Positions 3,358 to 48,287 of a stretch of 64,000 nucleotides of DNA are shown here, piece after piece. Source of the stretch: Spizellomyces punctatus DAOM BR117. Lineage: Eukaryota. Position 1 is the first letter of the stretch. Each line of letters starts with the position of its first letter. The stretch lies in assembly GCA_000182565.2 (NCBI GenBank), contig KQ257456.1; one strand, given 5' to 3'. The notes below the pieces were generated by a model that ran no database searches, was not told the DNA's origin, and worked only from the letters and a program-made list of their open reading frames with translations. The position numbers and the translations under genes were made by a program.

Positions 3358-6300
3358 ATGGACAGAGGAGACATGGAATCCAAAAAGCGATCCCACTCGC
3401 CTGATGCAGGGAGTGGAGCATCTCATCGATACGGATCAGATTCTTCGCTTTCACTACCATCCTTCTCACCAGCGGCTCCATCTGAAAGATATAATTTACC
3501 ACCACTCTCCAGCCTCACCTCGTTTGCTGCCGGTGGTGGGCCCCCGCCGCCGCCATCTCTTCATGGGCATATGCGGAGATCTGGATCTGAGGCGTCTCCC
3601 CCGCCACCCGTCAACAGTGCCAAGCGCTTGCGACTGGATGACACTGGATCGGTTGGATCTGCTGGAAGTCGGGATCGGTCGCAGTACGGGTCGCCGGCAG
3701 GCGCTGATGACCTAGGCGGTGGTCGCAGGCATTACATGCACTCGATGCCGGAACTTCCTGGTGAGTATTGGGTTTACATCATAATGGGTGCTAGCAGATA
3801 GGATTGTACTGATGAGAAGCTGTATCTAGGTATAGCTTCCATTACCGGACGTCCAGCACAAAACCCACCAGCAATGCCACTGTTTTCACCGGGGGCAATG
3901 CCTCCTTCAGCATCATCCCATGACGTCGATCATAGGTCCATCCTCCCGTCCGCTGGACATAGAGTGGTACCCGAATACACAGGCACTGCTCCGCCCACCC
4001 TTCCGTCCTTGAAATCTTTTAGCGCTGATGCTCTTCCAGAACGGACGCGAGGGTCTCCTGTTCTCAGTAGTCATTACGCGGCATCCGATTCTACACGATA
4101 TGGACCGTCTGGTGCTCCGCATTACTCTTCTTCAGCCTCTGTGCTAACTCCTTCTGGTGGAACTAATGCAATAGTACAGTCATCTCCTGGCCTCCTTTCC
4201 AGTAATAGAATGACATTACCGCCATTCAATGCAAGTTCTCCGGTCAGCAAAGTGCCAAAGCCGCCAGCAACCAATCTCTATAAGAGAGAAGGTAATGCGA
4301 CCACTTCAACCAGTGGTACAGCGTCAACATCAGTGACTAGCAGAGGTTCACCCTATCAGTCGCCCCGGTTGTCCCCTGCGTTGAACCCTACCATTGCAAC
4401 GATACCCCCTCCGGCAGCGTCATTTCTTCAAGCAGCGAATGGCACTGGACCTGCATTTGCCGCCAACCCCTTTGGCGTATCCCAATACGGTCCCAACTAT
4501 TACCCCTCTGCCGTGAAGCGTCTAGATTATGAGCGAAAGGACATACCAAGTGTCCTCTCCCGAGTACCCAACCCACCATCTTCCGCGGGAGAACCATCGA
4601 CTCCCCTAGGAACGTCTTCCAGTGAACTGCATGCTGTCGGAGCACTTTTACATGCTGCTTCTGCCGGTTCACCTACAGACCGCGACACTGGCTCTGGGGA
4701 TGGCGACTTGGACGAATCAGGTGCTGCTGGCAATTCGGAAGATTTGGAATCAGAGGACCTACGCAGTGGTGCTGCACTTCGAAGACGGACCAAGGGGCCC
4801 GATTCAGAAGCGGGCGAGCCGCTTGGGCGTGTCCTCATAATGGGGGTCCGTAAAGCTGATATGGAAAAAGCTAAAGAAGAAGCAAAACGAAAACGTAAAC
4901 CTGGGGATGTTGCTGTTGTGAATGATGAAAGATTAATTAAGTTGCCGAAAAATGTCGAAGAGAGATTTTTAGGTGAGAAGGTATATTGAGCGACTGATGC
5001 GATTATATTGAACTAAAAATAATTCTTTCAGGACATGTTAATTATACTGGTCCCCGCGTGAAAGTTCCCGGGTCTATCCGAGTAGAAGATATTGAACTCT
5101 TCCTGCTACCTCAGTTCACTAGCGAACATCATTACAGTACCATCGAAGTTCGCATTCCAGCGCACTTGCTGACATTTAAGAACAATGTTGCCGTGCGGCG
5201 ATCGGCCGTGTGGGGAACTGATGTATACGCTGATGATTCCGATGTTGTTGGCAGTAAGTTTGTCGCTGCGCAGGTTCAGCCGTGGCATTTCACTCACGGA
5301 GATTATATGCAGTGATTATTCATTCTGGATGGTACAAACCAATTGACTCACCCGTAACAAAGACTGTCCGCGCTCTGGGATTGACGACAGAGCGTCGGGA
5401 ACCTGAAACTCAGATTAAGCAGGAGCCGTTGAGTCCTAACGACGAAGACAAGAATGGCCAACAGGTTAGCACAACAGTCGAAGATAGCGCGACGCAGAGC
5501 AGTGTACCCCCAGAAACAGCCACCGTGCGCGTACTACCCCAACCTCCACCAGAGCCCATCACAGGAAAGGTAGATCCGCGGGACGGACTACCCGACCACG
5601 ATTTACACGTGACTTTGAGGATACTACCAAGATTGGTCAAGTACAGTGGCTCTTCGCGTAACGGAATAGAATCACGGGGATGGGGTGGTTTGCATGATGG
5701 AGAGAGCGTGCGAATCGAGAACGTTGTGTTGGCTGATAAAGGTACTGTGGGTCGTAAGGGACGAAAGACGGGTGCCAAGGGATGGAGCGCGATGGCAAGA
5801 ATCGTCGCTCGTGAACTGATTGCTATGGAACAAGGAGACGACGATGGGGAAGGAGACTGGGGGTGGGGCACAAAAGAGCCTGCAGAAGGTTTCGGAACTG
5901 TCACGTTTGTTTTCTCTGACTTTGATGGAGAAGCCTGGTAAGTTATTGTCTGCGAGGGACTCGCTCAACCGTTTCTCCCCTGGACTCATCAGGTTCTCGT
6001 CCGTTAGTTTGAAATACTCGCCAAAATTATTGATAGACTGGCCACCGTATTTACGAGATCTTTTTTGGGATTCAGAAACATGCCTTCAACGCGCTCGAGA
6101 GAAAGGCAAACATTACGCAGACGGCACAGAGTCGGCGTCTCAGCGAGCGCAGGAAATAGTTCAACGCCGCGTAGAAGTGCAAGAGCGAAAAGCCGAGTTC
6201 ACAGGGGAAGAGCTACGACGTATGCGTGATTGGCCATACTGGCGCATTAGGATGTTAAAGGATACCTTGTTTTTGGAAGATGGGTATGGTAAAAGGTAGG

Positions 6301-10180: not shown

Positions 10181-10779
10181 ATGCACAATGGGTAACTGCG
10201 CGCAAACAGTCAGCTTGATACTATACACAGAAAAGGTGGGCTACAAGAAGCCCCAAGATTACCCTTTGTCCGGACGCGTAGGGGCGAGGGCAAACGACCG
10301 CGGGAGTTGGTTGCTGGTTTCTTGAAGGGTGGTTCCGCGAGAAACGAAATGTGGAAGGAAGGAAAGAAACGGTTCGCTTCGCTTCTTTTCTTTCACAAAC
10401 CACTTTCTATATTTGGTTACATTGAATTCCAGTCGCATGATTCGCTAGCGATTTGTGATTCGATCAGCCATTCGATCAGCTCACTTTTTGCAATGCATTC
10501 CATCACTCGTTTCATTATTCCATTTACAGGTTAATGAAGTGTCATTGGATTCTGGTAGGCGATTCTTATCAGAGATCTCTGCGGCGTTCCTCATAGCGCT
10601 TTCTATACCTGCCATTATGTTGTTAGAAAATATTGGACCAGTCGGTTGACTTTTCCAGGTGCTCAGCACTTTGAAGAATCTCTGTTTGTCATCCGCATCG
10701 ACCATTTCGTAGGCGTATTTATAAAATAGAATTTAGGGTTCACGCCTGTAGATCCAAAGCACACCAGCACCGTCACATA

Positions 10780-10804
10780 GTGTATTGGCAAGAACTAATG
10801 TCAC
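10780..10804 (+). repeat. Left terminal inverted repeat of the Fanzor element
   Basis: GTGTATTGGCAAGAACTAATGTCAC, preceded by CATA (10776-10779); pairs with 13043-13067. Confidence 0.75.
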
Positions 10805-10938
10805 AAACAATACACAAACTGAGTCGATACATTGAGTCATGGAGTGTCATATATGTGGCAAACTGCAGAATATTCCTCTCATAGATGGCCGTCAGATGGC
10901 TGCAAGGGATAGTAATTGCAATCATTCATGGCCGCAGG

Positions 10939-11014
10939 TATTGGACCCGTTTTCATGCTGGCCACACATATTGGACCCGTTTTCATGCTGGCCACACATA
11001 TTGGACCCGTTTTC
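10939..11014 (+). repeat. 30-bp tandem repeat (about 2.5 copies) inside the Fanzor element, upstream of the ORF
   Basis: Unit TATTGGACCCGTTTTCATGCTGGCCACACA exact at 10939 and 10969, partial at 10999. Confidence 0.95.
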
Positions 11015-11077
11015 TCATGACAACAAACATAAATAGTGGCCATGGTCGCGGCATTTTCTCCTTTAACCCATCCTGAT

Positions 11078-12928
11078 ATGGGATGTCCTACATGTAACGG
11101 CACCGACCATCATCGGGCTTCCAGCAAACTTTGCTCCTTCTACAAACCTCGAAAGAAAAACGAAGTACGCACAACTTTGAAAAGGAAGAGGGATACCGAC
11201 CTTCCCAATGACGAAATCTTCATTCTTTCGACTGTTGTAAAAAGTGGACAACGGTCCCCTTTGCAAGTTGTTATCGCACATGCTGCGAGAACCTTGACTT
11301 GTATCGCTGCTGAAGCCACGCGGTTGTTCAACATGTTCGTCCTGGACCTTTTGGAGAGGAAGCAACAAATCCCCGAGTGTAGTTACAACAAATTTCTGCA
11401 CCAACCATTCCAGATTATTGCTTTGGCAAAAGCATCTTCCCCCCAACTGCAAACGATTCATCGCACCTTGTACCGTCAAACATCTCGATACGATGTTACC
11501 TACCTCAGCCAGCTGATCTCAAACATGGCCAAAGATTACGAGACCAACTGCATGAACCATGTATCAACAAACATTCGCAAATGGGCTTTCAAGTGGTATC
11601 GAATGAAGATGCAGAAGACGTACCCAGATCTCAAGCGAGATAAAATCCGAATTCTGTTCAACAAGGAAGATGACTTGAACGAGCATTCTCTTTACTTAAA
11701 GGCATGCTTGATGACATATGACGTTGACATCACCAAAGAGGTGTCATTTGACCATTGGTGGACATACTTTCCTTTGATGTGGAAGTTTCAAAGGTATTTT
11801 GCCAAGCACGGAGAGAGGAATTTCTCCATGGTCCCAATTACCACTTACGGGATTCGCCACATCCGTCTCGATACCAATGCACTTTACAAACTGTGCCTGA
11901 GAGTGGATCTATTCACCAGGAAGGATGTACCCGCAGCTGAATTCCGGACAAACGCTCTCGTTTATTGGAAAACCCTGTTCCCCGATATTGCCGAGACGAG
12001 CAACAAGTCATTTGCATACGGCGTCTCGACCGACGGAGTCGCTTGCAGTTACTATTACCAGAAACGTTACGTTCGGCGGCGACAGAGTCACAATTACTAT
12101 GGCTTCGACGATGACGGAAAATATGGAGCAATGAATTTGGAAGACGGCGTATCCATCGTCGGTGTGGATCCCGGTAGGATTGACATCTTTACAGCTGTTG
12201 ATGGGAACGAAAATGTTGTGAGGATGTCCAGAAAGGAATTTTACTCACTCACGGGCATGGTGGCAAGTCAGAAGACTAGAAACCGATGGTTAAAGAACAA
12301 CCCAGCAGTCCAGTCGATCGTAACGCAATGTCCCACACCACGCACTCCAGATATTGAGAACTTTCGACAACACTGTCAATATGTGCAGCAGCATCTGTTA
12401 ACCTTGGTCGACTTTTACGGAGCGCGGCGGTTCACCCGTCAAAAGTTGCACACTTACATTGGCAAGCAGAAAGTCTGGGCTACGATCGTAAGAAGAATTA
12501 CCAAGAATGACAGACGCACGGTTGTGGCGCTGGGCGATGCAAAGTTCAGACACAACTCCAAAGGCGGACCTTCGACACCCCTCGCTAGGATGGCCAAAGA
12601 GTTAAAAAGGAGACACCGGGTTCGAATGATTGACGAATTCAGAACGTCCATAACGTGTTCACATTGCGATGGTGAATTGCCGAAAAGCACTCGACACTGG
12701 CAGGTCAAGGTACGTTGGGCCGTCATGAATTCGGTTTCACAAAAGTGAAGTTGAATTTGTGTGTTTTGCCAGGTCTGCAACGACTTATGTTTGACTCACT
12801 GGAATCGAGACGTTAATGCGGCAAGGAACATTCGAAATATTTTTCTCCACATGAACGAGAACAACGGAGAACGCCCTTGCTGCTTTGCACGTACTGTACC
12901 CCAGTTCAACCCAGGCTGGAACCTGTAG
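11078..12928 (+). CDS. Fanzor1 (eukaryotic TnpB-like RuvC RNA-guided endonuclease), ~595 aa; exons 11078-12709 and 12773-12928 (alternative ATG at 11042)
   Basis: RuvC-I SIVGVDPGRIDIF (D codon 12167), VVALGD, rearranged catalytic Glu in MIDEFRTS (12635), Zn finger CSHC...VCNDLC and RuvC-III WNRDVNAARNI (D codon 12809). Also FSMVP and GVSTDGVAC motifs, an N-terminal CxxC..H..C knuckle and basic NLS-like KPRKK/LKRKRD. Phase-0 intron GTACGT...TTTTGCCAG at 12710-12772. Confidence 0.93.
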
Positions 12929-12994
12929 CGAGTTAGGATAGGGGTGGGACTCGTTTGCAGGATAGGTTATGAAGGGTTGGACAGGCTGGCTAAT

Positions 12995-13089
12995 TGTAAA
13001 TTAGAACCGGCTGTAGTGGGTTGGAGGGAGAATCTGTCCCTAGTGACATTTTCTACCACCTGCACACTATTGCGACCAAGTATTCTGCC
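12995..13089 (+). ncRNA. Putative Fanzor omegaRNA: scaffold to about 13069 plus flank-derived guide (~TTGCGACCAAGTATTCTGCC)
   Basis: Lies between the Fanzor stop codon and the right end, the known omegaRNA position. Visible stems are AACC/GGTT (13005-13022), GGGA/TCCC (13026-13040) and TAGTG/CACTA (13041-13069). The 5' boundary is a guess. Confidence 0.7.
13043..13067 (-). repeat. Right terminal inverted repeat of the Fanzor element
   Basis: GTGACATTTTCTACCACCTGCACAC followed by TA; inverse of 10780-10804. Confidence 0.75.
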
Positions 13090-13437
13090 AGCAAGTGTGT
13101 TTATTTGCTGACGTGAGCCTTTTGTTTATAACAAAAATGGCGGTCCCCCCTTTGCGTTTCAAATGTGGTGGGCGCCAATGCCGTTGTACCCCCGTGTTTC
13201 AGGTCAAAGTTGTTGAGTATCTCAACATGCCCCTTGCCCACTTTGCGTGCATAGGGCTCGTGTATGCTTGAACAAAGAGCGTGAGAAAAAGGCAGCGGGG
13301 TGCTCGTTCCACCGCCCTTCCCGTCACCTTTGCACGTTCGCAGCCCGGACATTTGAGTTTCCGGGGAATTGGCGAAAGCAGTTATCCTAACAATCGGGCG
13401 GAACTCAAGAAACCTGCCCTTGTCATCCAGTTGGGCA

Positions 13438-16047
13438 ATGGCCGCAACTGTCCATACCCGCTTAACCGATCACGATCACGACTTGTATTCTCGAACTAAC
13501 CGCAGCACTGGACCTTCAATGTACGATGCTGAAGCGTATGCCTTGCAAGAAGACACAACACCCATCATGACGGAGGACGAAATGATGCAAGTGGAAAGAG
13601 AACTGCTAACTGCATGGCAAAGTAGGACTCCTGCAAAGCCTTCGGATGCACAGCTGGCGTCTCCTGCTGTTACGAACGGGGGCGAAGCGTCCCCTCGTAT
13701 CGCGGACACGGCAAGGTCACTCGAGATCGAACGAAAGAAAAGCCTGTACGCAAGCGAATTTGCCGAGTCGGTCCAAAACATGAAGAACCTTGCCGAAAAG
13801 CAGCGAAGATTAGAAGAATTACAATTGTCCCTAGACGACTCGTATGAAATTCGGAAAGATATGCAGGTGGAAGACGAAGTTGAACGTGTCTGGATGTCTC
13901 CCACCTTCGGATCTGGAGGACAAAATGACAATCTGCCAAAAGATGAAAATGAGAATGGGAGTGCGGCAGCCAATCATGGCGAGACAGCCTCATCCTCTCG
14001 GAGTGTACCAGCGTATGTGGCCACGTCACAAGAAATGGATGGAGCAGAGACCTCGAGTCTACTTATCGATACAAAGGGCCATTTACAGCAGCTGGAGAAA
14101 GAACTGGAATTGCTGAGAGTTACTACTCTTTCTCGGCCAGCGACTTCCGAGTCTAGTTCCCCAGCTCTGTCTGTAGCTGCAGAAATGTCAGAGACAAGAG
14201 AATCCCCTGTTGCGGTGGACGAGGATGGAAATGAATGCATGGAGACGCAGGACGCCTGGGGCAAGGCGGATGGCAATGCAAAGCAAGATGTTGATGCAAA
14301 GTCTGCGCAACGGGTTTCGTTAACCGTTCGCACCTCTCGGTCCAGCTCATCTCTACAGTGGCACTCTTCCAAGCACTCATACATTTACGAACCAGTCAAG
14401 AACACAAAAGCAGATGTCGCGGATCTACTGGTACAGATACAAGAAGAGTATGAAGAACTTACATCCGAACCTTTTCCTTCACCAAAAGCCGATGTATCGC
14501 TCGCAACATCTTTTGACAATTGGAATAAGGATGCCAAGCCTGCCGATAGTGTGCCAGTGACGGTGAAAAAATTTCACTTACCCATGGGTCGGCCCAAGTA
14601 TATGCAGTCCCTACTGATGCAAGTTGACGATCCCAAAGTCAAGGAACGACTTCGCGAGATGCATAAAATACGGCAGTCGAACGCAGCCGCAGGATTGGCT
14701 GTTTTGGTGCCGTATTCTGTTGGACCAAGGCAGACGGGTGAATTTGGTAGTTTAGGGGAAGTCGTCGAGGTGAATGAGGATGGGGATGATACTGCATCTC
14801 AGCTGACAGAGGACGACCCAAGTTCCCCTGTTGTTGAGCAAAAGTCTTCCTTGCAGCCACCACCACGGCGAATTATTCCACCAACAGCAACCGATGGTCA
14901 CTTGGGAACATCGACCTCATCTAGAGGCACGGAAGAAATTGCTGGACGTGCTAGCGTAGCCCCAGCACTGCCCTCCTATCTAACATCATCACCGGCAAGT
15001 CAGGGCAGCCCTATTCCTGTCCCGCCGGTGAGACGATCCAGCATTTGTTACTCATCCCTTTCGATCCCTTCCGCACCGCAATGGGCGCCGATTCAACTCG
15101 CACCGACCGCAAACAATGACTCAAAACGCCTCACACCCCTCACCCTCCACATTCCCCCACCGCCACGCACCTTCCCACCCCAGTATCTCCATCCCCGCCT
15201 TTCCCGTATGGGTGTTATGGACTTGTCACCGAGGCCCGCAGGACGGCCATCGACACTTGGTAGAACGTGGGGAGATCCGACCAACGTGACGTCGTTTGTT
15301 ACACCAGTACATTCCGCTCCGGAAAGATTGAAGACTGCTCCAAGTTCCATTACAGGACCTCAGTTGGTCAGCACATCTGCGAGAATCAAGACCGTACCCA
15401 TCAACAATGTTCTCAGGGAGCTGCAATTGAAGGGGAAAACCCAGTATGCAGAATCTTACATAAATGACAACGTCTCGCTCGGCAGTAACACTTACGGAAC
15501 GGCGCAAAGGGCGCAAACAGTGACTGGGGTATTCCGAGGACAAGGCTCACGAAAACGATCGGACGTTTTTTCGGTGTTTGAGGAGCAGGATCCTCTTGAG
15601 AGGAATTACACATCACCGGCCCCCATACCTGGTGTGTCCATGAACACCCGCACTGCAACCGTCTATCCGAGTCCTCCGGGCACTCCCTCTTTCCAACGAG
15701 AACGTAGCGCATCGTCGCCTCAGCTACCCAATGCTTCCGGGTCACATTTCACCAAATATGTCCGTAAAGTCGGTAAAGCCCTCAAAACGGCCATCGATCC
15801 TTACACCCCTCCTCCTCAAACCACACCTCCAGTATCTGGTTATGCAACAGCCGACCGCACGCTCCGCCACTCCAAATCCATGAGCTCGTTGCTACCAGAT
15901 CAAAGTGCAGTGACCTTCTCCCAAGCTGCTGCAAATACGGGTGATATTTCTCCGACGACATTGCAAAATAAGCGATCCGCTGAGATGGAAAAGTTTAGAC
16001 AAATGTTGATTGAAACCTATTCAGGTCCGAGTGGACCAGCGGCATGA
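13438..16047 (+). CDS. Hypothetical S/P/T-rich, largely disordered protein with short coiled coils; intronless, ~870 aa
   Basis: 2.6-kb uninterrupted ORF, first ATG at 13438; no family recognised. Confidence 0.75.
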   Translation: MAATVHTRLTDHDHDLYSRTNRSTGPSMYDAEAYALQEDTTPIMTEDEMMQVERELLTAWQSRTPAKPSDAQLASPAVTNGGEASPRIADTARSLEIERKKSLYASEFAESVQNMKNLAEKQRRLEELQLSLDDSYEIRKDMQVEDEVERVWMSPTFGSGGQNDNLPKDENENGSAAANHGETASSSRSVPAYVATSQEMDGAETSSLLIDTKGHLQQLEKELELLRVTTLSRPATSESSSPALSVAAEMSETRESPVAVDEDGNECMETQDAWGKADGNAKQDVDAKSAQRVSLTVRTSRSSSSLQWHSSKHSYIYEPVKNTKADVADLLVQIQEEYEELTSEPFPSPKADVSLATSFDNWNKDAKPADSVPVTVKKFHLPMGRPKYMQSLLMQVDDPKVKERLREMHKIRQSNAAAGLAVLVPYSVGPRQTGEFGSLGEVVEVNEDGDDTASQLTEDDPSSPVVEQKSSLQPPPRRIIPPTATDGHLGTSTSSRGTEEIAGRASVAPALPSYLTSSPASQGSPIPVPPVRRSSICYSSLSIPSAPQWAPIQLAPTANNDSKRLTPLTLHIPPPPRTFPPQYLHPRLSRMGVMDLSPRPAGRPSTLGRTWGDPTNVTSFVTPVHSAPERLKTAPSSITGPQLVSTSARIKTVPINNVLRELQLKGKTQYAESYINDNVSLGSNTYGTAQRAQTVTGVFRGQGSRKRSDVFSVFEEQDPLERNYTSPAPIPGVSMNTRTATVYPSPPGTPSFQRERSASSPQLPNASGSHFTKYVRKVGKALKTAIDPYTPPPQTTPPVSGYATADRTLRHSKSMSSLLPDQSAVTFSQAAANTGDISPTTLQNKRSAEMEKFRQMLIETYSGPSGPAA

Positions 16048-28305: not shown

Positions 28306-28405
28306 NNNNNNNNNNNNNNNNNNNNNNNNNNNNNNNNNNNNNNNNNNNNNNNNNNNNNNNNNNNNNNNNNNNNNNNNNNNNNNNNNNNNNNNNNNNNNNN
28401 NNNNN
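28306..28405. other. Assembly gap (100 N)
   Basis: Run of N. Confidence 0.99.
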
Positions 28406-37163: not shown

Positions 37164-38397
37164 CTAATCATCCAACCCATAAAACGACGAAAGTCTCCGC
37201 CTACACTCCACTTTATGCACACCCCAATGCCCAACCTGACATTCCCGTGAACAATACTTGACACCTTTACACCCCCCACATTTTTGGAACCGTCTCACAA
37301 ATTCAGCACTCCCACACCCAGCACAACAAGGTGTAAACACATCAGTAGGTAAAGCCAATAACCCTAAATCCGTCCAAGGCGTCACAGCCGAAACAGGTAC
37401 AAACCCATCAAGACGACGTAAATGTTTAGGAGACATCATGGAGAGGTTATATAATGCCGCGAGACGGATATCGGAACAAGGAGGTGGAGAGGCATTCAAG
37501 ATGGATTCCAAAAGTTCACGACCGTTCCGTGGTTCCACGCGGGAATTCAGGACTGCGAAATTCAATTTAAGTGTATAGTAATGTCGGTGGTCGTGCGTTG
37601 TGTCCAATCGGATGGCGATTTGAGATAAGAGGGTACAGTATGTTCGGAGGGCGGTTGAAATGTATTGGGTGTGTGTGGTTGATAGGGCTTCCCATGTTAA
37701 TGCGTGGGTTTCGAGGGCGGGGAGGTAAAAGGGGGAGGAGGGGTTGAGGGCTGACAGGCCGTGTTTGTGGAATTGGAGGAGGTTGAGGTGTGGAGTCGTT
37801 GGTTTGGGTGGGTAGGAGCGAAAAAGGGATGCAAAGCGTTTACTAAAACCAAGAGCAGTGAGAGAGTGAAAAACATTCAACGAAACCAAGAAACAATCAA
37901 AAAACCTACTTGCCAAAAGCCCTAAAAATCAACTCCAAAACCTCCTTCTCCAACCCAGGAGTAACAACAACCTCCTCCCACACCACCTCAACAAAACACT
38001 CGTCCACAAAACACTCACCCAAAAAGGCACCCACCCACCTCGTATTCTCAAAACCCGATAAACAAGAGCCCAATCCATTCATCTTGACCTCCCAAAATGC
38101 CGCCAAGAGGAGTCGTACGACATGGCTATTCAGTTCCTTGCGGGCGGGGATGGGGAGGATCGTATCAATAATACCGGGGAATACAGCAGAAATGATTTCA
38201 GCGTTTTCAAAGCGGGCTGTGTAGAGTATCCCGGATTCGGGGACGTGGATGGCAATCTTGGGTGGGCCATTGAGGGCTTTGTTGAGGGTGTTGTGCGAGA
38301 GTGTGTCTAGGAGGGTGAGTTGGGTGTTTGTCCAGATGTGGAGTGCGAGATTTGTGGGGTTGAAAAAGGTGCGGTCAAAAGAGAGGGGGATGCCCAT
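37164..38397 (-). CDS. MYND-type zinc-finger protein; 2 exons
   Basis: C-terminal CAGCG...CGGCKGVKYCSRECQVGHWGVHKVEC; an intron at about 37910-37845 joins the two ORFs. Confidence 0.8.
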
Positions 38398-46819: not shown

Positions 46820-47329
46820 TTACGGACGGTCAGTGTGGGTAGCGACATGGGTATCAACACCGTGACCAGCAGTAATAAATTCTACACGGCTCTCTGCACG
46901 GCTGTCTGCACGGCTCTCAGCTCGACTCTCAGCTCGACTCTCAGCCCGACTCTCCTCCCCACATCCATCACCCCCAACAACCCAATACGGAGGCGGTTCA
47001 TCCCCACCAACCTCGCTACACTCCAAAACCATCCTCTCAAACCTCTCCCGACCTTTAGCAAAAGCCCCCAACCCACTCCCAAAATACACAACAACATACA
47101 AAACCCCTTTTCGAACAACAGCCGCATACCCTCTAAACTGCGTCCTTTTATTTCCCTTCAAGACAAAATGCCAAATTACACCCCCAGAGCACCATCCCTC
47201 CATTGTTTGTCGCGTCGCTTCCACAAGGTCTTTATGCGCGGCTTCCAAGAGTTCTTTTAATGCTTTTTGGGTAGAGTTGGGTGTTGGGAATGGTGGGAGG
47301 AGGGTAATACATGTAGGTGGATGTGGAAT
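46820..47329 (-). CDS. C-terminal fragment of a hypothetical protein truncated by the gap; contains SRA(E/D) repeats
   Basis: Frame is open from the gap to 46820 and includes a 12-bp tandem repeat at about 46885-46950. Confidence 0.4.
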   Translation of the reverse strand: MPHPPTCITLLPPFPTPNSTQKALKELLEAAHKDLVEATRQTMEGWCSGGVIWHFVLKGNKRTQFRGYAAVVRKGVLYVVVYFGSGLGAFAKGRERFERMVLECSEVGGDEPPPYWVVGGDGCGEESRAESRAESRAESRADSRAESRVEFITAGHGVDTHVATHTDRP

Positions 47330-47862
47330 NNNNNNNNNNNNNNNNNNNNNNNNNNNNNNNNNNNNNNNNNNNNNNNNNNNNNNNNNNNNNNNNNNNNNNN
47401 NNNNNNNNNNNNNNNNNNNNNNNNNNNNNNNNNNNNNNNNNNNNNNNNNNNNNNNNNNNNNNNNNNNNNNNNNNNNNNNNNNNNNNNNNNNNNNNNNNNN
47501 NNNNNNNNNNNNNNNNNNNNNNNNNNNNNNNNNNNNNNNNNNNNNNNNNNNNNNNNNNNNNNNNNNNNNNNNNNNNNNNNNNNNNNNNNNNNNNNNNNNN
47601 NNNNNNNNNNNNNNNNNNNNNNNNNNNNNNNNNNNNNNNNNNNNNNNNNNNNNNNNNNNNNNNNNNNNNNNNNNNNNNNNNNNNNNNNNNNNNNNNNNNN
47701 NNNNNNNNNNNNNNNNNNNNNNNNNNNNNNNNNNNNNNNNNNNNNNNNNNNNNNNNNNNNNNNNNNNNNNNNNNNNNNNNNNNNNNNNNNNNNNNNNNNN
47801 NNNNNNNNNNNNNNNNNNNNNNNNNNNNNNNNNNNNNNNNNNNNNNNNNNNNNNNNNNNNNN
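47330..47862. other. Assembly gap (~530 N)
   Basis: Run of N. Confidence 0.99.
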
Positions 47863-48287
47863 NCATTGTATATGCCCTCCAACACTTTTGATAATGTCAA
47901 CTCGCTATGGACATGTAGAATGCCCATCCATTTGGTTGAGTTGCGTGATGAGACCTATCGAATCGTGATGGACCGGCGTCCACCCCTGTGGAACGGGAAT
48001 GGAATAATGCCCACATGCGACACGAGTTGCGTTTGTCAATGTATCATGATACGGTACATTGCATGATATATCCTTGATAATGTTGATGCATTCAATCACC
48101 GTCGACATTCAAAAAGTGTAAACAACTTTTGTCGACGAGGTATTTTACTCTGCATCTGCTTTGGACCGTCTTGCTAAGCAAGTGTGGCTTGGCACATGGA
48201 CCCACACATCACACATCACACTCTACAAATCTCCGCCAACGACAATCGTTTTTTTTTTATTTAAAAAACTCGCACGTAACAGCACAT

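Follow-up and report, generated by a model that had tools for sequence, protein, structure and literature searches.

Background

Three Fanzor1 families were described in Spizellomyces punctatus by Bao and Jurka in 2013 (PMC3627910), and SpuFz1, which belongs to the SPu-1 type, has been characterised biochemically and structurally (PMC10432273; structure 8GKH). Here, a copy of another of these families, SPu-3, was analysed in a stretch of 64,000 nucleotides (nt) from S. punctatus DAOM BR117 (GenBank assembly GCA_000182565.2, contig KQ257456.1), which is hereafter called the window and is numbered from its first letter. SPu-3 is known here from its sequence and from public reads. New in this study are a gene model in which the Fanzor1 gene appears intact through an intron that was missed in earlier listings, a predicted RNA scaffold that is consistent with those of relatives, and read-based evidence for transcribed gene-less copies of the right end.

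In the table of Bao and Jurka, the row 'SPu-3 (2288)' gives a copy number of 2 (25 for SPu-1), terminal inverted repeats (TIRs) of 25 nt, a target-site duplication (TSD) of 2 nt (TA) and a single-exon Fanzor protein of 626 aa, and the superfamily column is blank for SPu-3. That paper was published before RNA guidance was discovered, and its SPu-3 entry describes no RNA end, target-adjacent motif (TAM) or ghost copies. SPu-3 and SPu-1 are alike in their host, in being single-gene elements of about 2.1-2.3 kb with inverted ends, in the TA duplication and in the CA before the TA (PMC10432273). Both have the layout of an aspartate, a shifted glutamate and an aspartate with a glycine at the old glutamate place, a two-stem-loop scaffold (predicted for SPu-3) ending in ...CAC plus UA before the guide, and gene-less copies that keep the right end. 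The two proteins are nevertheless distant, and SPu-3 differs in three further ways: its gene has an intron, its protein carries a CxxC..H..C motif at the N-terminus, and its scaffold is of another sequence.

More remote systems share parts of this design. PpFz1 of Parasitella parasitica (9CF0; Xu et al. 2024, PMC11423790) is alike in the region of RuvC-II, the zinc finger and RuvC-III; it differs in that the C-terminal part alone matches, in its TAM (ATN) and in an extra cyclophilin-binding domain. Bacterial TnpB of IS200/IS605 and IS607 and Cas12f have the same RuvC and zinc-ribbon (TNB) core, and a right-end guide RNA in which the flank acts as guide would be a further likeness; in contrast to them, SPu-3 is without TnpA, has inverted-repeat ends with a TSD rather than peel-and-paste ends, and has a shifted catalytic glutamate.

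In Jiang et al. 2023 (PMC10530073) the gene is entered as Fanzor50_0617, 'unclassified', with 568 characters, a span that corresponds to ATG 11042 up to the first stop in the intron. In the tree table of Saito et al. 2023 (PMC10432273) S. punctatus is named once, for SpuFz1, and all five S. punctatus loci tested there are of SPu-1 type. An N-terminal peptide of SPu-3 was absent from the searched supplements of that paper, whose table cells may be incomplete, so that misses of C-terminal peptides are uninformative. A full-text literature search for SPu-3, SpuFz2 and SpuFz3 returned no relevant paper, and no test of SPu-3 was found in the papers and supplements that were searched.

The element and its ends

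The 2,288-bp element occupies positions 10780-13067 with TA adjoining both sides, and its termini comprise the following features.

10776-10779, + strand: CATA, comprising CA and the TA flank; from the sequence a candidate TAM, by likeness to SpuFz1
10778-10779, no strand: left TA of the TSD; likeness of public reads to the window begins at 10777/10778
10780-10804, + strand: left TIR, 25 nt, inverted match to 13043-13067
13043-13067, - strand: right TIR, 25 nt, inverted match to 10780-10804
13068-13069, no strand: right TA of the TSD, from the sequence and public reads

The left 25-nt end is GTGTATTGGCAAGAACTAATGTCAC. In register, the inverted ends agree at 15 of 25 positions, including GTGT as the outermost four and AATGTCAC as the innermost eight; when one arm was shuffled, 41 of 100,000 shuffles matched at 15 or more of the 25 positions. 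The length of 2,288 bp, the 25-nt ends, the TA duplication and the printed DNA ends and protein are identical with those of SPu-3. Both 25-nt termini, printed in capitals in the SPu-3 DNA (PMC3627910, Additional file S2), equal the ends in the window, and over its first ~490 nt and last ~440 nt the printed DNA agrees with the window by eye, the 63 nt discussed below included. The printed protein equals the read-through translation (P0153) plus twelve N-terminal residues, with X at both TGA codons. By sequence, the stretch is a copy of SPu-3, an element already published in 2013.

Four public runs were aligned to 10300-13600, namely RNA reads (X19), raw DNA reads from a chromatin immunoprecipitation library of uneven depth (X20), and contigs of X1 and X2, whose depths were not taken as copy numbers. 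In all four, the likeness of reads or contigs to the window ends exactly at 10777 and at 13069-13071, so that a recurring genomic unit ends exactly at the two TA. A preliminary description of this DNA, made from its letters, had proposed a TIR-bounded element with a single gene, and the ends, the TA flanks and these read breaks bear that out. Its wording 'possibly uncharacterised' falls for the element, which was published with size, ends, TSD and protein, and stands for the biochemistry only.

No transposase was found in the element or among the 15 long open reading frames (ORFs) of the window, and mobilisation must therefore come in trans; SPu-3 is a non-autonomous cut-and-paste DNA transposon. 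As a candidate non-autonomous member of the Tc1/mariner superfamily, SPu-3 has the TA duplication, and a DDE/D transposase was found neither in the element nor in the window. When the flanks were joined to an empty site, the only stop-to-stop stretches that cross it were of 83 and 81 aa, and no long ORF is broken by the element.

Gene model and evidence for a putative intron

The Fanzor1 gene lies on the + strand and is modelled in two exons.

11078-12709, + strand: exon 1, 544 codons, from the ORF, relatives and motifs; it holds the N-terminal CxxC..H.R.SS..C motif, basic stretches, the REC/WED region, RuvC-I D364, G486, RuvC-II E520 and C527/C530
12710-12772, + strand: putative phase-0 intron of 63 nt, from GTACGT to CAG and containing two in-frame TGA, inferred from the gap in relatives
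12773-12928, + strand: exon 2 with C546/C550, RuvC-III D557 and the stop TAG, from the ORF and the profile match

A stop-to-stop ORF at 11033-12748 is followed in the same frame by an ORF at 12755-12928, and the in-frame TGA codons at 12746 and 12752 both lie inside the 63 nt. Excision of 12710-12772 joins the frames in phase 0, and the resulting protein, counted from ATG 11078, has 595 aa; outside the 63 nt all is open, and every catalytic and zinc residue is present. The spliced protein contains GVDPG with D364, VVALGDAKF with G486, IDEFRTS with E520 and WNRDVNAARN with D557, and its C4 zinc finger consists of C527-x2-C530 and C546-x3-C550. This model differs from that of the SPu-3 paper, in which the protein is given as '626 aa, 1 exon' from ATG 11042 with X at the TGA codons. 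Starting at this alternative in-frame ATG would give 607 aa after splicing, and the N-terminus of the relative P0001 aligns with ATG 11078.

The 21 residues that the 63 nt would encode are absent exactly from eight of nine aligned relatives, and BLASTP against the relative P0002 gave 63% identity over 458 columns with a single gap of exactly 21. The ninth relative, P0001 from Borealophlyctis nickersoniae, has a 20-residue V...Q insert of its own at the same point, and this insert starts and ends as a retained GT..AG intron would. Two metagenome relatives (L001 and L002) are intron-less and read ...WQVKVC.DICLT.WNRDVNAARN without interruption. In the relative L005, a GTAAGC...CAG intron of about 66 nt (1336-1402) lies seven codons downstream of the position of the window's intron, in the zinc-finger region; either the two would be independent gains, or the intron slid. 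Elsewhere in the window, a heuristic found five other candidate GTNNGT..YAG introns of 55-97 nt that connect long ORFs, and in size and donor the 63-nt intron thus fits the host. With Pfam PF07282 the exons scored 15.4 and 17.7 bits apart and 27.9 bits together (cut-off 26.3), and since the domain passes only with the exons joined, the intron would split it.

These observations were weighed against a dead copy, in which the TGA codons at 12746 and 12752 are real stops, no splicing takes place, half of the zinc finger and RuvC-III are lost, and the element is a relic whose right end survives as a repeat. Such a copy would agree with the one-exon protein that Bao and Jurka printed with X for each stop (PMC3627910) and their count of only 2 SPu-3 copies, with the 568-aa 'unclassified' ORF of Jiang et al. 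(PMC10530073), and with the RNA reads of X19, none of which was seen across the 12709/12773 junction and whose depth in the gene body was 0-3. We consider it very unlikely, because the 63 nt begin with GTACGT, end with CAG and are in phase, because their excision restores the ...WQVK joined to VCNDLCLTHWNRD of eight of nine relatives and of the two intron-less loci, and because the gene is open elsewhere with the catalytic and zinc residues all kept. The insert of P0001 at the same point and the intron of L005 seven codons on also argue against it. We infer that the 63-nt intron is spliced and that the gene is intact once it is removed. The preliminary description had given the spliced length as about 595 aa, with D364/E520/D557 counted from ATG 11078 and a C4 finger, all of which were reproduced exactly; it had also warned that automated annotation could call the gene truncated, as is seen in the 568 aa of PMC10530073 (Data S1) and the X at the stops in PMC3627910.

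The N-terminal CxxC..H.R.SS..C motif (11084-11134, residues 3-19) is present in 19 of 97 aligned relatives and absent from SpuFz1. It is followed by the basic stretches KPRKKN and KRKRD (11144-11194), which resemble nuclear localisation signals. Pfam gave no match in this motif and basic region.

Assignment to Fanzor1 and the active site

A phmmer search against all PDB chains returned a single sequence, SpuFz1 fused to MBP (8GKH and six other entries), at E 6.8e-13 over query residues 229-532. An HMM search, which the preliminary description had put forward as a check, was run with a profile of the protein and nine relatives. It found 8GKH at E 2.7e-24 (profile positions 164-596), the Parasitella Fanzor1 9CF0 at E 5.9e-12 (positions 462-596) and two LaTranC chains at about 8e-5, four sequences in total at E<=0.01.

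Residues D364, E520 and D557 align with D383, E541 and D606 of SpuFz1, which are its metal-binding residues (PMC10432273). Residues 364-563 fit a Fanzor pattern from a 2023 preprint (DPG..E x6 [CH]xxC..C..RD x5 N). Bao and Jurka's pattern, D-x(125,275)-[TS][TS]-x-x-C4 zinc finger-x(5,50)-RD, is found in the spliced protein and is absent from the unspliced ORF of 568 aa, the spacing from D364 to T523/S524 being 158 residues. In Fanzors an inert residue (Gly or Pro) replaces the canonical RuvC-II glutamate (PMC10530073); G486 aligns with the G of VVMGDWS in SpuFz1 and is invariant in ten of ten close relatives. In an alignment of 97 proteins, D364 is invariant, and at least 90% of the rows retain E520. 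The Fanzor1 call of the preliminary description is upheld by the homology with solved structures and by these patterns, of which the Bao-Jurka one fits only after splicing.

A library of 1.84 billion proteins gave 1,550 matches at E<=1e-3, of which 31 were at E<=1e-30. The nearest were P0002 (63-68%), followed by P0001 and P0003 (~52%); a protein search, whose word index has limits, found 64% for the closest match. The lack of a closer match fits a gene that is omitted from public gene sets. In a quick tree of 33 proteins, built with X removed from P0153 and with SpuFz1 left out, the window protein stands beside P0002 (SH-aLRT 97) and then P0001 with P0003. SpuFz1 was not among the best 150 of the 1,550 library matches. 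As judged from these comparisons, the window protein is a Fanzor1, a eukaryotic relative of TnpB, and it is of a Fanzor1 lineage other than the characterised SpuFz1.

A metagenome scan found 0 relatives in 86 stretches with a single-protein query and 16 loci in 51 stretches with an alignment query, and 0 of 4 viral contigs had relatives. In the ESM Atlas, the nearest clusters carry PF07282 and PF26935 and are mostly from Mucoromycota and giant viruses, which is a lead only. Identity with a bacterial TnpB (IS200/IS605 or IS607) was rejected: the relative P0002 stayed far below the cut-offs of the NCBIfam models (guided_TnpB 25.3 bits, cut-off 100; IS607_TnpB 16.7, cut-off 350; IS200_TnpB 16.1, cut-off 425), the NCBIfam TnpB models gave no match for P0153, and no TnpA was found.

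An intact gene could still encode a protein that does not cut, one that only binds RNA or DNA or needs a partner; related to this is a protein that acts in trans, mainly with the guides of gene-less copies. The intron-containing algal Fanzor1 CrFNuc-1 bound RNA with no detectable cleavage (PMC10530073), the host role of cutting is stated to be unknown even for SpuFz1, ghost guide loci are discussed for SPu-1 (PMC10432273), and most right-end RNA of SPu-3 comes from other copies, as described below. Yet conservation extends to the whole D/E/D triad and to the C4 finger, with D364 and E520 as noted among the 97 proteins, and SpuFz1, which has the same active-site layout, cuts DNA (PMC10432273). 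A non-cutting protein is thus distinctly unlikely in our view.

Copies, transcripts and predicted fold of the right end

The right end comprises a repeated segment, two predicted hairpins and the adjoining flank.

12896-13069, + strand: right-end segment, 174 nt, in more places than the gene and its most transcribed part, from depth and breaks of reads and contigs
12984-13012, + strand: stem-loop 1 of the predicted omegaRNA scaffold, from the fold of 12983-13069
13014-13069, + strand: predicted stem-loop 2, with the right TIR as its 3' arm
13070-13089, + strand: flanking DNA (TTGCGACCAAGTAT...), the would-be guide by analogy with SpuFz1

DNA reads of X20 numbered 86-178 per direction in the bins of 12853-13074, 13-72 in the gene body and 14-75 in the right flank. 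At 12895-12897 the sequences of X1, X2, X19 and X20 part from that of the window, and at 13069-13071 they pass into at least five differing continuations. The higher depth and the differing continuations mean that the last 174 nt stand in more places than the gene. This suggests that SPu-3 has gene-less, 'ghost'-like right-end copies of its own, which are its most transcribed part; 'ghost' loci were described for SPu-1 (PMC10432273). At 13034, where the window has C, T was found in 237 of 319 X20 DNA reads.

In X19, the RNA depth of the two right-end bins was 403 and 1,169 with the first mate on the + strand versus 5 and 26 on the - strand (44:1). It was 71 in the first flank bin (13075-13185) and 1 in the next, so that transcripts run a short way into the flank; in the gene body it was mostly 0-3, with 12.7 on the other strand in one bin. 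If first mates have the RNA's own sense, as a single clue suggests, the right-end RNA would run in the same direction as the gene. The right-end copies are transcribed on one strand, and by analogy with SpuFz1 their RNA may be processed into a guide RNA.

A variant in the coding region fits a second, nearly identical gene copy. At 11207, A>G (N44D) is the only coding difference above the listing threshold, and it is carried by 5 of 41 X20 reads and by half of the X1 contig depth.

The last 87 nt (12983-13069) were folded at -28.7 kcal/mol (z -2.07), with 7 of 200 shuffles as good, and the closing pairs of stem-loop 2, UAGUG/CACUA, take in the TA flank. For L002, whose protein is 54% identical, a like fold was obtained from different letters (z -4.78, 0 of 200 shuffles), ending in CACUA exactly where the likeness to the window stops. 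The right end of L004 (28% identical) gave a like two-hairpin fold ending in GUGUA (z -3.29, 0 of 200). The likeness of these three right ends was judged by inspection of single folds; their sequences are too unlike for MAFFT, and the consensus fold had -0.63 kcal/mol with 11 pairs. Variants among copies are at the unpaired positions 13034 and 13039 or break pairs (13000 and 13020) and give no support for the fold. Rfam returned 0 matches at E<=1 on 10600-13300. The omegaRNAs recovered with SpuFz1 end in ...GGCUCCGCAC followed by UA and some 14 nt of flank, and the guide length of SpuFz1 is 14-15 nt (PMC10432273). In insect-virus Fanzor1s the stem next to the guide is formed by the inverted repeat and the TSD (2023 preprint). 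The predicted right end of SPu-3 fits this published omegaRNA layout. The 12-nt start of its would-be guide occurs once in the window.

Two observations were made on the relatives. At 87-2231, L004 carries a complete element flanked by TA; its inverted ends measure 35 nt and are 86% complementary, and its left TA is preceded by CT. L002 has at 777-805, 20 nt behind its right end, a second fragment like the right terminus (TAGTGACATTTTC...ACTA), which may be a neighbouring ghost remnant.

The right-end RNA might instead be read-through or 3' untranslated region (UTR) of miniature copies in or near expressed genes, with hairpins that reflect the inverted-repeat nature of the transposon. This would suit the many flanks, the agreement of only 0.48 among loose ends at 13069, the first mates, which outnumber second mates among the RNA reads by 4,545 to 5 as in a 3'-tag library, the absence of sharp RNA ends from the X19 report and the lack of an Rfam match. 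We find it unlikely, since the stem pairs with internal sequence and not with the other end of the element, the same stem recurs with different letters in L002 and L004 and always ends at TA, the strand bias is 44:1, and the omegaRNAs of SpuFz1, which share the layout, were pulled down with the protein (PMC10432273).

Proposed mode of action

The explanation that we favour, and hold to be probable, is that the locus is an SPu-3 copy with an intact Fanzor1 gene whose product would act in an RNA-guided way, by analogy with SpuFz1. Transcription would pass through the right end into the flank, and the last ~87 nt or more would form two hairpins, of which the inverted repeat and the TA close the second; the 14-20 nt of flank behind them would be the guide. 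The 595-aa protein would bind this RNA, recognise a TAM (probably CATA, made of CA and the TA target) beside a matching target, and cleave with the RuvC site D364/E520/D557. An empty site, CATA followed by TTGCGACC..., would be cut, and a filled site, with ACTA before the same sequence, would be spared. The payoff, which is the least certain step, may be that the element is retained or is copied by repair from the filled copy; this is the usual proposal and is taken from TnpB.

SpuFz1 R291 and Y345, at the point of TAM recognition and unwinding, align with R281 and Y331 of the window protein. For SpuFz1 the TAM is 5'-CATA, a CA is conserved upstream of the left repeat, and any change of the TAM abolished cutting (PMC10432273). 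The term 'probably active' of the preliminary description stands as an inference only.

Several observations weigh against this explanation. The N-terminal half of the protein, which reads the TAM in SpuFz1, is without sequence alignment to SpuFz1, and a single left-end-like copy among the RNA reads shows GATA in place of CATA. The algal CrFNuc-1, cited above, is an intron-containing Fanzor1 with no cleavage detected, and both earlier publications read the SPu-3 gene as interrupted or truncated, in keeping with the missing junction reads. For the window's right end the gain in folding over shuffles is modest, and the opposite strand has z -1.54. Of 4,550 RNA reads, 4,354 have only a partial fit, and other copies are therefore the source of most right-end RNA; at 13034 T was found in 896 of 1,142 + strand RNA reads where this copy has C. 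At 11207, G was found in 10 of 11 RNA reads; perhaps it is the other gene copy that is expressed, and the gene of this copy may be nearly silent. Finally, the RNA library looks 3'-tag or 3'-biased, so that a 3' UTR and a separate small RNA are indistinguishable in it, and the strand of the RNA was read from one A-run at read ends, in an unrelated transcript at the loose end 10777.

A wider reading is put forward only tentatively, as possible rather than expected. SPu-3 would be a second working Fanzor1 system of S. punctatus. Its protein and scaffold would be too unlike those of SpuFz1 for cross-reaction, and the two systems would share the TA target and probably the CATA TAM. SPu-3 would draw its repertoire of guides from gene-less right-end copies of its own, its two gene copies would act mainly in trans, and the zinc-finger intron would switch between the full nuclease and a truncated RNA-binding form.

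Tandem repeats, flanks and neighbouring genes

Upstream of the gene, one further feature lies within the element.

10929-11018, + strand: 30-nt tandem repeat in three copies, each with TATTGGACCCG, from a repeat search (TRF: 10939-11014, 2.5 copies, 100% matches)

By their sequence, these repeats may be binding sites of a shared transposase. As separate observations, a similar 13-mer lies at 10630-10642, 150 nt outside the element; TATTGGC is also present in the left inverted repeat; and GGTATTGGCAC is present in the SPu-1 terminus as printed in PMC3627910.

The left flank at 10579-10715 matches the middle of a 4,484-nt X1 contig with 3 differences and with unlike sequence on both sides, and the element seems to lie beside or inside another repeat. 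A 39-nt piece of the left end (10777-10815) is covered by about 200 RNA reads of the opposite strand, with T at 10802 in 362 of 373; these reads continue into CGTTAACATCTC and an A-run. A left-end-like fragment is contained in another, well expressed transcript, which is probably polyadenylated.

Further away in the window, host genes encode an Rxt3 histone-deacetylation domain (5258-5938, E 6e-13) and a MYND zinc finger (37167-37928, E 6e-11). Runs of N are present at 28306-28405 (100 bases) and 47330-47863 (534 bases). Long ORFs around 46820-48066 were rejected as artefacts, as their reading frames pass through the 534-base run. ARAGORN found 0 tRNA genes, and a scan for promoters and terminators with bacterial models, which are not applicable to a fungus, gave nothing.

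Significance

The element itself is already in print, and what is added here is modest; as an editing tool, the protein would be one more compact candidate among thousands. A complete gene for a predicted nuclease of 595 aa appears to have been overlooked, being stop-containing or truncated in two listings and having no entry in the catalogue of 2023 that led to SpuFz1. It would provide a second, distant Fanzor1 in the one organism in which Fanzor biology has been studied, with both elements flanked by TA and with CA before the TA. With two systems in one host, cross-talk, orthogonality and shared mobilisation become testable, and the transcribed gene-less right-end copies bear on the question of what role Fanzors have in their host.

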